From the NCBI GenBank assembly GCA_016284305.1, contig JAEEON010000036.1:30735-94734 (forward strand): DNA of 64,000 bases, read 5' to 3'. The notes beneath the pieces were generated by a model that saw only the letters and a list, made by a program, of their open reading frames with translations, had not been told where the DNA came from and searched no databases. A program made the translations under genes and the position numbers. The stretch comes from Bacteroidales bacterium (lineage in GTDB: Bacteria > Bacteroidota > Bacteroidia > Bacteroidales > F082). Shown piece by piece: positions 49,328-51,664 of the stretch. Position 1 is the first letter of the stretch. Each line of letters opens with the position of its first letter.

Positions 49328-51664
49328 TTAAAGTGATCGGATTGAGATGGCAAATCCACCACAGGGAGCCATTTTCATTTTTAGGACCGACTTAGAGGTG
49401 ACGGTCTTTTTTGTGATGGTATAGGCTTGTGGGTTGTAGTTCTCGTCGGGGATGCCGCTGGCGTCTTTGGCATCGGCATAGATGGTGGCTTCGTATTTCA
49501 CGCCGGGTTGCAGGAAGTCGAGTTTCACCTTGAACTCACGAGCGTTTTCATCGGTGATACCACCTACGTACCAGACATCATGGGGAGTTGGGAGTTGAGA
49601 ATTGAGCGTTGAGAAGTCATCGGGAAGGTTATAGACGAAACGTGTGGCATTGGAGATGACGCCTTTCTTGCCGTCGGGGAGGGCGGAGAGGCAATCAGCG
49701 GCTTTGTTCAGGCTTGAGATCTTGGGGTGACGGGCGGTGATGATATAGTCGCCGGGCTCAGCTTCGAGGTAGAGGGTCTTGTCCCAATCAACGGCAACGT
49801 CCTTGATGAACTGGAAGGCGTCCAAGAAGGGCTCGTAATGCTCGGGGAAGTCGGCGGCCATTTGTAAAGGTGAGTAGAAGGTCACATAAAGACCCAGCTG
49901 GTTACAGATGGTGGTCTTCATCTTCTTGCCCCAAGGGACGATGGTGCCGATGTCGGTTTGGAAGATCCCGGGCGTGTAGTCCATTGGACCACCTTGCAGA
50001 CGGGTGAAAGGCAGGATGGTGGTGTGGCCAGGGTTGATGCGTTCGCGGAACTCGGTGCCCATGGCACTCTCGTTACCGATCATGTTAGGCCAGGTGCGGC
50101 ACAAGCCCGTAGGACGCACTGCCTCGTGGGCGTTGACCATGATATGATGCTTGGCGGCCTCGACGATGGCGTAGTGGTAGTGGTTGTTGATGGGTTGGCT
50201 ATAGTGCCCTTCAGCAAAGGGGATGATGGTGCCCACATACCCGCTCTTCACGGCATCGTAACCATATTGGTTCATCAGGTTGTATGCCTTCTCCATCCAA
50301 CGTTCGTAGTTCACCGTCGATGCGGAGCTTTCATGGTGCATGATGAGACGGATGCCTTTTTCGTGGGCATACTTGTTGAGCGCCGGCAGGTCGAAGTCGG
50401 GATAAGGGGTCAGGAAGTCGAAGACGAACTCCTTTTGTTTGCCGTACCAGTCCTCCCAACCGACGTTCCATCCCTCGATGAGCAAAGCGTCGAAACCGTG
50501 TTTGGCGGCAAAGTCGATGTAACGACGAACGTTGGCGTTGTTGGCCCCGTGGTTGCCGGTGGGTTTGGCATGCTCGAAGTCGGTCTGGCCGATCTTCACG
50601 GAAGGGTACTGGTCGGTATAGGCCCAGGTGCTCTTTCCAGAGATCATCTCCCACCATACCCCCATGTATTTAACGGGGTGGATCCACGAAACGTCCTCGA
50701 GGGCGCAAGGCTCATTGAGGTTGAGAATGAGGCGTGAGGCGAGCACATCGGTGGCTTTCTCACAGACCATAACGGTACGCCAAGGGGTGACGCATGGGGT
50801 CTGGATGCGACCTTTGTAGCCGGTGGCATCGGGGCAGAGGAAGGCACGGAAGGTGAAAGGTGAAAACTGAGAATTGAGAGGTGAGAGGTTAGAGGTGGAA
50901 GATGGTGTGATCAATTCGAGATGCATGGTGGGGAAGTCGAGTGTGGCTGCCTCATGGATGTTGATGTAGAGGCCGTCGTCGGTCTTCATCTGGATGGCTG
51001 TCTGAACGCCAGTGTCGGAGAAGGAGGTCCATGGCCATCCGCCATCTTTAAGGCTGTCTTTGAAAAGGGAACGAATCTCTGAGAGGCGCGATTTCGTATA
51101 GTTGTATTCTTGCGTGTCCAAGTCACCGGGGATCCACCAAGCAGTATGGTCTCCCGTCATGGCGAACTCAGTGAGCTCCTCCTTGAACCAGAAACATACC
51201 AGAGCGTTCTCGATGGGGAACTCGTAACGGAAGCCGAGTCCATCGTCATAGAGACGGAAACGGATCTGCATCACCGTCGCCTTGGTCTCAGTAGAGTGGT
51301 CCATGCTCTCGACACTGCCGATGGGCTGTTCGAGGGTGACAAGCATCTCGTTATAGTGGTTTCGGATCTGGGCCTCCTCGCCCCAAACAGGCTCCCAGGT
51401 CTCGTCGAAGCTGTCGTAGGTGGTATCCTTGAGGACGAAGGCATGGGCTAGGTCGTCGCGCCATTCAAGGGTGAAGCCCATGCGTGAAGGCAACACCACG
51501 AGTTTGCCCTCACGGCTGAGGGAATAATAGGGTACGCCGTCAACGAGTTCGAAGTTGACCATCAGCTTTCCATCGGGACTGCGGAGTACAGAGGGTTCAG
51601 TGCTATAGGAGGGCAAGGTGAGCCCCATCAATAGGACAAAGAGTAATAATGTAAGTCGTTTCAT
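49328..51664 (-). CDS. Glycoside hydrolase family 97 (alpha-glucosidase/alpha-galactosidase-like)
   Basis: N-terminal [49 protein letters not shown]: matches my recollection of SusB-type GH97 signatures. Signal peptide present. Confidence 0.75.
49587..49614 (+). repeat. Heptanucleotide tract inside the GH97 CDS (GTTGGGA GTTGAGA ATTGAGC GTTGAGA)
   Basis: Encodes [11 protein letters not shown] on the coding (minus) strand. Confidence 0.75.
50852..50900 (+). repeat. Heptanucleotide tract inside the GH97 CDS (GGTGAAA x2, ACTGAGA, ATTGAGA, GGTGAGA, GGTTAGA, GGTGGAA)
   Basis: Seven consecutive 7-nt units (49 nt). Encodes [19 protein letters not shown]. Confidence 0.85.

Follow-up and report, generated by a model that had tools for sequence, protein, structure and literature searches.

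The window analysed here is the whole 64,000-nucleotide (nt) stretch of contig JAEEON010000036.1 (positions 30,735 to 94,734 of the forward strand) of a Bacteroidales bacterium, with a G+C content of 45.6%. Two of its genes, one for a GH97 alpha-glucosidase and one for a P1B-type (Zn/Cd) P-type ATPase, each contain two tandem arrays of a degenerate 7-nt unit, which reads NNTGARA on the + strand and TYTCANN on the coding strand. The GH97 open reading frame (ORF) matched the solved GH97 structures 8wg0 and SusB (2jka) with E=1e-261, and the ATPase ORF matched ZntA (4umv) with E=6e-103. The origin of these arrays, and a 24-nt element found within arrays of this kind, are the subject of this analysis. 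The host genes and their arrays are as follows.

49328-51664, - strand: GH97 alpha-glucosidase gene, 778 aa; hosts two heptamer arrays
50850-50901, + strand: GH97 array 1; period 7, 7.4 copies and 77% matches by Tandem Repeats Finder
49579-49614, + strand: GH97 array 2; about 4-5 degenerate units
44639-46642, - strand: P1B-type (Zn/Cd) P-type ATPase gene, 667 aa; hosts two heptamer arrays
45752-45801, + strand: ATPase array 1; encodes SLSFSPFTFRLSIFNSHFS, in the short loop directly before the CPC transmembrane helix
45002-45041, + strand: ATPase array 2; encodes SSQLSPLNSH, directly before the GDGINDAP motif

Sequence and orientation of the arrays

GH97 array 1 contains seven units at 50852-50900 of the + strand (GGTGAAA GGTGAAA ACTGAGA ATTGAGA GGTGAGA GGTTAGA GGTGGAA), and GH97 array 2 contains four weaker ones at 49587-49614 (GTTGGGA GTTGAGA ATTGAGC GTTGAGA). 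Both readings had been given in an earlier note on this DNA and were confirmed by re-reading the window sequence. The second tract is the weaker point, being short and degenerate; Tandem Repeats Finder flagged only 49583-49597. At its two arrays the ATPase ORF reads ..SLSFSPFTFRLSIFNSHFST.. and ..SSQLSPLNSHLAF.. The ORF translations also bore out the peptides that the note had compared: FSPFTFR is identical in GH97 and the ATPase, and LSPLNS(Q/H) is common to both. The near-identical coding nucleotides said to lie behind them were found as TCACCTTTCACCTT on the coding strands of both genes.

The number of such tracts was far above that expected by chance. Autocorrelation at lag 7 detected 6 tracts in the window, compared with a mean of 0.05 and a maximum of 1 in 200 dinucleotide shuffles, and the other periods from 4 to 12 gave 0-1 tracts each. 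A scan for runs of four NNTGARA units, allowing 3 mismatches at most, of the kind proposed in the earlier note and run here on the window, returned 17 matches, where 100 shuffles led to an expectation of 0.14; the matches fell in 6 tracts. In all, the window has 8-9 tracts. These are head-to-tail 7-nt units beyond chance length, as in the long simple-sequence repeats (LSSR) and STRR arrays of other bacteria. No secondary structure was found in the array strand; the window arrays fold to -0.6 kcal/mol.

The NNTGARA unit carries TGA (TAA or TAG in variants), and because of the 7-nt period any three successive units place this stop in every frame. The sense strand can therefore only be the TYTCANN strand. 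The four coding tracts indeed lie in the same orientation relative to their host genes, as the earlier note had pointed out, but this is not an independent clue, since the stop codons force it. MacGregor made the same argument for the forward orientation of TAACTGA repeats, which has stops in all three frames (PMC4679880). Arrays with the stop-rich strand as the sense strand can only end or follow a gene, and two further arrays are placed in this way.

55815-55843, - strand: perfect (GGTGAAA)x4; non-coding, in the stop-rich orientation; begins 1 nt past the TAG stop of an MBL-fold gene (55844-56590, - strand)
43552-43594, - strand: array GTTGAAA ATTAAGA ATTTAGA ATTTAGA; unit 2 provides the TAA stop of a radical-SAM/SPASM gene (43578-44654, - strand)

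Since 7 and 3 have no common factor, an array encodes a peptide with the same 7-residue period in whichever frame it is read. Identical peptides in the two unrelated proteins are thus accounted for by identical units, and neither a shared frame nor selection on the peptide is needed. The stop-codon logic and the frame independence of the peptides both follow directly from the sequence.

The four coding sites in homologs

Comparison with solved structures placed extra residues at three of the four coding sites. GH97 site 1 exceeds the tight turn of 8wg0 and SusB by 14 residues. In the ATPase, site 1 has 14 residues more than ZntA and site 2 about 5 more. For GH97, 120 homologs of 78-100% identity were compared, and about 60 species representatives were examined at the DNA level. 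Orthologs at about 80% identity without inserts were found for both genes.

GH97 array 1 is located in a turn between two beta-strands, and this site was an indel hot spot among the 120 homologs. Many have the plain turn MHLDL-DDKN-MVFRAF, and others carry quite different low-complexity inserts. Comparison with insert-free orthologs had been suggested in the earlier note; 36 of the roughly 60 species representatives proved insert-free at this site, and in the remaining 24 or so this one turn was occupied by inserts of no fewer than 8 unrelated types. Several of these types are inverted array pairs, such as (GAGAATT)n...(AATTCTC)n. The insert-free allele of a related species was also found in a metagenome contig, in which 21 nt encoding LDDKNMV stand in place of the 63 nt at window 50853-50915. 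The net difference is 42 nt, that is, 6 units or 14 residues.

GH97 site 2 is hypervariable, and its alleles in relatives fall into three classes of equal length, with either a native sequence (ALPDDATIEDLWHSEPH), an array of heptamers or a 28-nt GTAG..CTAC palindrome. The palindrome is in frame at this site in many species and encodes PDSVET....SLQNPR. It belongs to a family of perfect 28-nt palindromes of the form GTAGAGACG-N10-CGTCTCTAC, in which the inner 10 nt covary. The related loci hold 47 copies (L001 12008-12035, L014 12098-12125, L018 12038-12065 and 44 more), and the window holds none.

The insert at ATPase site 1 was absent from more than 100 of 120 ATPase homologs, which read PPLFSG-DFTGTFATW. 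The insert-free site already contains the proto-units CTTCACC..CACCTTT, which could be the local seed of the array. At ATPase site 2, on the other hand, a heptamer array was present in most of the 120 ATPase homologs, for example as (AACTCTM)x4.5 in L206. Two other small inserts were seen within the array at this site in other species: a 21-nt block, GGCTTCTGAGCATGTCGAAGG, encoding ASEHVEG (L204), and a palindrome with an 8-bp stem, GGGCTGAC-ACACGG-GTCAGCCC (L205).

Not every tract is a recent addition: the array at ATPase site 2 is old, and the one at GH97 site 2 is an equal-length replacement of a native segment. Homologs with solved structures have no such inserts.

The S/T/P/L/F-rich peptides might instead have been selected as functional modules (flexible linkers, O-glycosylation sites or sorting signals) that arose convergently in the periplasmic GH97 enzyme and the membrane ATPase. 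The retention of ATPase array 2 just described would fit this, and the variants at GH97 site 2 often contain triplets of D, S/T and a hydrophobic residue. These triplets resemble the O-glycosylation motif of Bacteroidota. However, the same units occur in non-coding DNA and in the opposite orientation, and the composition of the peptide is set by the stop-free strand of whichever unit is present. At the corresponding sites orthologs either have no such peptide or an unrelated one, and the sites also accept palindromes and the 24-nt element. From P1B-ATPase topology, moreover, the two ATPase inserts would lie on opposite sides, one periplasmic and the other in the cytoplasmic P domain, which makes a common modification unlikely. 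Selection at the protein level is, on balance, an improbable origin of the tracts, though less clearly so for the long-retained ATPase array 2.

Two further features of the host proteins were seen. A segment of about 34 residues in GH97 (aa 649-682, window 49622-49720) is absent from all solved GH97 structures and conserved across the clade; it seems to be a genuine characteristic of the subfamily, not related to the repeats. The N-terminus of the ATPase (window 46598-46642) has a His/Glu-rich tail, MAHEHHHEHEHHEHEE, an ordinary metal-binding extension of P1B ATPases.

Strain differences and a 24-nt element

A contig from another sample, L081, matches the window with 98.15% identity across 21.7 kb, and only five indels separate the two. 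Three of these are 1-nt homopolymer changes in intergenic DNA. The other two are identical 24-nt blocks, one in GH97 array 1 and one in ATPase array 2. The 24-nt element is not present in the window itself, which has the corresponding empty sites.

L081 10798-10822 and 16660-16684: 24-nt element ATTAACTTCGTTGAATGCTTCGCA, in GH97 array 1 and ATPase array 2
Window 50866-50867: empty site in GH97 array 1; coding strand TCTCAG / TTTTCACC, the slash marking the junction
Window 45028-45029: empty site in ATPase array 2

Both insertions add the same 8 residues, (Q)LTSLNASH. The sites are also empty in L203, which is 98.5% identical to the window with 0 gaps in 7.3 kb, and in the outgroup L202 (about 84% nt identity). 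The parsimonious reading is therefore two gains in the L081 lineage, and this presence and absence at orthologous sites is the behavior of a mobile sequence. The junction bases differ as well, so that each change can be described either as 24 additional nt plus point changes or as the replacement of a dinucleotide by 26 nt, which would fit a templated, conversion-like copying step.

The 22-nt core of the element was found in at least 120 rumen metagenome contigs, with 129 copies among the matches listed, in at least 48 unrelated contexts. It was invariant except at 4 degenerate positions, although the search pattern was restrictive and itself limits the variation that can be seen. The copies were nearly always inside 7- or 8-nt arrays, the units of which varied from copy to copy (AATTCTC, GATTTCAA, CGTGCTAA and AATTCCG), and removal of the 24 nt restored the phase of the array. 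The nesting is thus precise. Direct repeats of 7-8 nt flank the element in 23 of the 48 contexts, mostly as a trivial consequence of the surrounding array; only 7 lie outside arrays.

The element can form a small hairpin with a 5-bp stem and a TTY loop, and compensatory variants of the stem were found (AATGC/GCATT, AACGC/GCGTT and ATTAC/GTAAT). The hairpin was rejected as thermodynamically notable (-2.8 kcal/mol, z = -1.5), these few variants being the support for the stem. A phage origin of the element was also considered and dropped, with 0 matches in viral contigs.

The strain comparison also bears on phase variation, in which the arrays would be contingency loci and a gene would be turned on or off whenever its array became one 7-nt unit longer or shorter. 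A 7-nt unit does shift the frame, all three frames are open within the arrays, and phase variation by heptanucleotide repeats is known in Haemophilus (PMC8262952). On the other hand, the coding arrays are degenerate, with 77-88% matches by Tandem Repeats Finder, and only the non-coding array at 55815-55843 has perfect units. Unit number was not polymorphic either: apart from the gap-free comparison with L203, the only indels in arrays relative to L081 were the 24-mers, and no array indels, and in particular no variants of plus or minus 7 nt, were seen at the arrays in metagenome contigs (Logan, 4 metagenomes). The host genes are also housekeeping-type enzymes with the arrays in mid-gene. We consider phase variation very improbable.

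The Logan contigs of two runs (X2 and X3) join the ATPase array to the GH97 array (45766-45795 to 50870-50875). The exact sequence common to both arrays in the window is shorter than the assembler word length. These joints may come from a strain in which the two arrays have a longer sequence in common, from true recombination or from faulty assembly. Such chimeric joints (45795 to 50875) indicate that assemblers can be confused there, and would favor the view that the arrays themselves are artefacts of assembling or sequencing low-complexity sequence. However, the arrays were the same base for base in independent assemblies from different samples (L081, L203 and the contigs of X1-X4), and the frames were intact in all of them. 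Because of this identity, an artefact can be set aside for practical purposes.

Arrays across rumen Bacteroidales and their interpretation

The distribution of the arrays was surveyed in the 80 best genomic matches to the window, which total 1.54 Mb and have at most 84% identity to it. All of these are metagenome-assembled genomes of uncultured Bacteroidales from the rumen or gut of cattle, sheep, goat, yak, buffalo and deer. They contain 191 period-7 tracts, compared with 5-59 for other periods, and period 14 is a harmonic of 7. The units were very diverse (for example AAAATTG, AATTCTC, ACTCCTC, AAAGTGG, AACGGAG and AACAGCC), with the period remaining constant.

The arrays were strongly depleted from genes: 46% were in ORFs of at least 150 aa, compared with 93% of random positions. 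The other 54% were in the approximately 7% of the sequence outside long ORFs, so that the arrays are dispersed and mainly intergenic. Units with stops on both strands made up 39% of the non-coding arrays but 6% of the coding ones. In GH97, about 4 array sites recurred across species. The longest of the arrays observed lies directly downstream of a GH97 gene (L027 12519-12659) and has about 20 GTTCAAG/GTTCAAA units.

A hot spot was also found at a gene end. The stop of the radical-SAM/SPASM gene in the window (43578-43594) comes from an (ATTTAGA)-type array. At the end of the same gene in the outgroup L202 (about 17770-17800) there is a (GAAGACA)n array, which is read through for 7 more codons. 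The different array at the same position suggested a gene-end hot spot with turnover of units.

Unit sharing, allowing up to 1 mismatch, was found in 19.4% of the array pairs within genomes and in 7.8% of those between genomes (permutation p<0.0005). Together with the inverted array pairs, this suggested that arrays copy from or recombine with one another to some extent. Within 11 kb of L054, five copies of a composite module, (AATTCTC)n-CACC-(TTTTTAG)n-TTTTAAA, were found in intergenic DNA, in both orientations.

L054 9620-9773: composite module
L054 13096-13166: composite module
L054 15916-16050: composite module
L054 19116-19211: composite module
L054 20575-20652: composite module

One mobile element of MITE-like or RPE-like type, transposed into both genes without growth in place, would be another source of the arrays. 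It would explain the sharing of a unit family within a genome, the inverted pairs at GH97 site 1 (L004, L057, L027 and L002), which resemble foldback elements, and the five copies of the (AATTCTC)n-(AGTTTTT)n module in L054. However, the four coding arrays could not be aligned as copies of a single sequence, since their unit variants follow one another in different orders and their ends do not agree. None of the window arrays has an inverted partner, and the proto-units at the insert-free ATPase site 1 fit local seeding. Rickettsia palindromic elements (RPE) are selfish repeats of 100-150 nt with a defined consensus, found in frame in genes and tolerated as surface loops. The window tracts resemble them as in-frame, loop-tolerated inserts in protein genes, but are tandem arrays of 28-63 nt without a palindrome or a shared consensus. 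Transposed copies of a single element are thus an unlikely origin.

The interpretation that we prefer, with a probability of about 75%, is that the tracts are heptanucleotide tandem arrays generated at the DNA level, a genome-wide repeat class of uncultured rumen Bacteroidales, and that they are passively translated where they lie in genes. The earlier note had also favored insertion or expansion of a DNA repeat over protein-level selection. The non-coding copies, the insert-free orthologs, the clade-wide arrays and the strain indels all support this, and the observed repeat excess, the stop-codon logic and the polarised presence and absence of the 24-nt element agree with it. From these observations we infer the array-making process, the neutrality of the inserts and their actual translation.

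The arrays would arise and turn over by slippage or duplication of 7-nt units in the DNA. Slippage has been proposed in the literature, based on the roughly 7 nt that contact the polymerase (Mrazek 2007, as summarised in PMC4679880). Recombination or some copying activity would then spread or homogenise the arrays within a genome, and the majority would come to rest between genes. Survival inside a gene would need the stop-free strand to be the sense strand, a net length change in multiples of 3 and a surface loop tolerant of extra residues. A surviving array would simply be translated into an S/L/F/P/T/N-rich peptide with 7-residue periodicity. The arrays also serve as landing pads for the 24-nt dispersed mini-element.

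Several points weigh against this interpretation. The insert lengths at GH97 site 1 in the species representatives are not in 7-aa steps, so unit-by-unit growth alone is not the whole history. No array changed in unit number among the window, L203 and L081 (97.5-98.5% identity), and ongoing slippage is therefore not demonstrated. The retention of ATPase array 2 in most of the 120 homologs could reflect an acquired function. Both GH97 sites were coil in an AlphaFold model from 40 close homologs, but its quality was low (mean pLDDT 57, too poor for fold searches), and the loop placement comes mainly from the alignment to solved structures. The intact frames are what suggest that the inserts are translated. 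Finally, neither the arrays nor the 24-nt element has an assigned enzyme.

The window has further repeats outside the two host genes.

43424-43466, + strand: intergenic (TTAACTG/TCAACTG/TCAACTA) array, with a copy of an 83-nt direct repeat on either side; the copies form arms of a long hairpin
39593-39623, - strand: period-7 tract of AGAAGAC-like units within a 2570-aa GH94-like gene; encodes KTEDQKTEV

The first lies in a convergent intergenic region in which 43303-43539 forms a long imperfect hairpin (CGTCATTGCGAG...CTCGCAATGACG). The right arm of the hairpin is part of the 83-nt direct repeat, the two copies of which are 110 nt apart with the (TTAACTG)n array between them. The whole looks like a composite REP- or MITE-like module. 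The GH94-like gene (cyclic glucan synthase or phosphorylase type) has a second period-7 tract at 41173-41202, and the AGAAGAC unit of its first tract matches the array at the radical-SAM gene end in L202. Rfam at gathering score gave only a tRNA in the window (61474-61547), with no match on the arrays.

Mrazek et al. reportedly described heptanucleotide long simple-sequence repeats in 2007, and Mazel et al. the cyanobacterial STRR arrays in 1990. To our knowledge, heptanucleotide arrays have been known for 35 years without their formation ever having been shown, and are regarded as intergenic. Among the long simple repeats of bacteria, those with a heptanucleotide unit are the most frequent, and arrays are known in cyanobacteria (STRR), Xanthomonas, Beggiatoaceae and a few Bacteroidetes including Paludibacter, mainly in intergenic DNA or at gene ends (PMC4679880); the LSSR and STRR arrays are summarised in PMC4679880 and PMC4692102. 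The arrays described here are like them in that 7-nt units are joined head to tail at numerous dispersed loci and that each genome holds several families of units. They are also alike in being mostly intergenic and under-represented in genes, and in often abutting or overlapping stop codons. The rumen arrays differ in their very high unit diversity, in the occurrence of 8-nt arrays as well, and in a sizeable mid-gene minority that is read through as loops at recurrent hot spots.

The TAACTGA repeats of Beggiatoaceae, cyanobacteria and five Bacteroidetes including Paludibacter (MacGregor 2015, PMC4679880) also fit ORFs only in the reverse orientation, and some of their copies provide the stop of the upstream gene, as here. 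The intergenic (TAACTGT)n array of the window is one base from the TAACTGA unit. However, the TAACTGA repeats have a single unit and lie mostly just upstream of start codons, for which a role in translational regulation was proposed (PMC4679880), whereas the rumen arrays have many units and occur in mid-gene; no association with start codons was seen among them.

The 28-nt GTAGAGACG-N10-CGTCTCTAC palindromes resemble the REP elements associated with RAYT transposases (PMC3116915): both are short hairpins scattered over the genome, have GTAG/CTAC ends and show covariation in their stems. By definition, however, REPs lie outside genes (PMC3116915), whereas the 28-nt palindromes are also found inside them.

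No specific report of heptamer arrays or of elements like small dispersed repeats (SDR) in rumen Bacteroidales was found in the literature searched. What is unusual here is the mid-gene arrays, read through at hot spots in conserved enzymes, together with an SDR-like 24-mer that targets them. The new points are that the arrays pervade an abundant uncultured gut lineage, and that they are repeatedly tolerated in the middle of enzymes, giving lineage-specific loops that will be misread by annotation, homology modelling and family alignments. In practical terms, they cause chimeric joints in short-read assemblies. The arrays are also the preferred target of a 24-nt element with a counterpart so far only in Nostocaceae.

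This counterpart is the group of Nostocaceae repeats SDR1-8, of 21-27 nt, reportedly described by Elhai et al. in 2008. These SDRs are cited in PMC4390886 and PMC5861425, and according to PMC5861425 SDR-like repeats are not known outside Nostocaceae. The 24-nt element is likened to SDR1-8 by its features, not by its sequence: a length within 21-27 nt, a non-coding size, near-identical copies in many contexts, precise nesting, and presence or absence in close relatives. It differs in belonging to another phylum and in having two copies in frame inside essential-type genes.

A tentative extension, which we regard as possible but doubtful, is that rumen Bacteroidales have a DNA-copying or mobility system functionally parallel to the SDR/STRR system of Nostoc. 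Such a system would insert ultra-small modules (the 24-nt element, and perhaps also the 21-nt insert and the 28-nt GTAG palindromes) precisely into short-period arrays, even in essential genes. The 7-8-nt arrays could then be accumulated target duplications or footprints of insertion-excision cycles. If true, this would explain together why the period is fixed, why each locus has its own units and why the element is constantly associated with arrays. Natural filled and empty alleles are available to work with, and a second, distant lineage that pairs 7-nt arrays with nested modules of 21-27 nt opens the mechanism to comparative genomics, through the genes common to both lineages.

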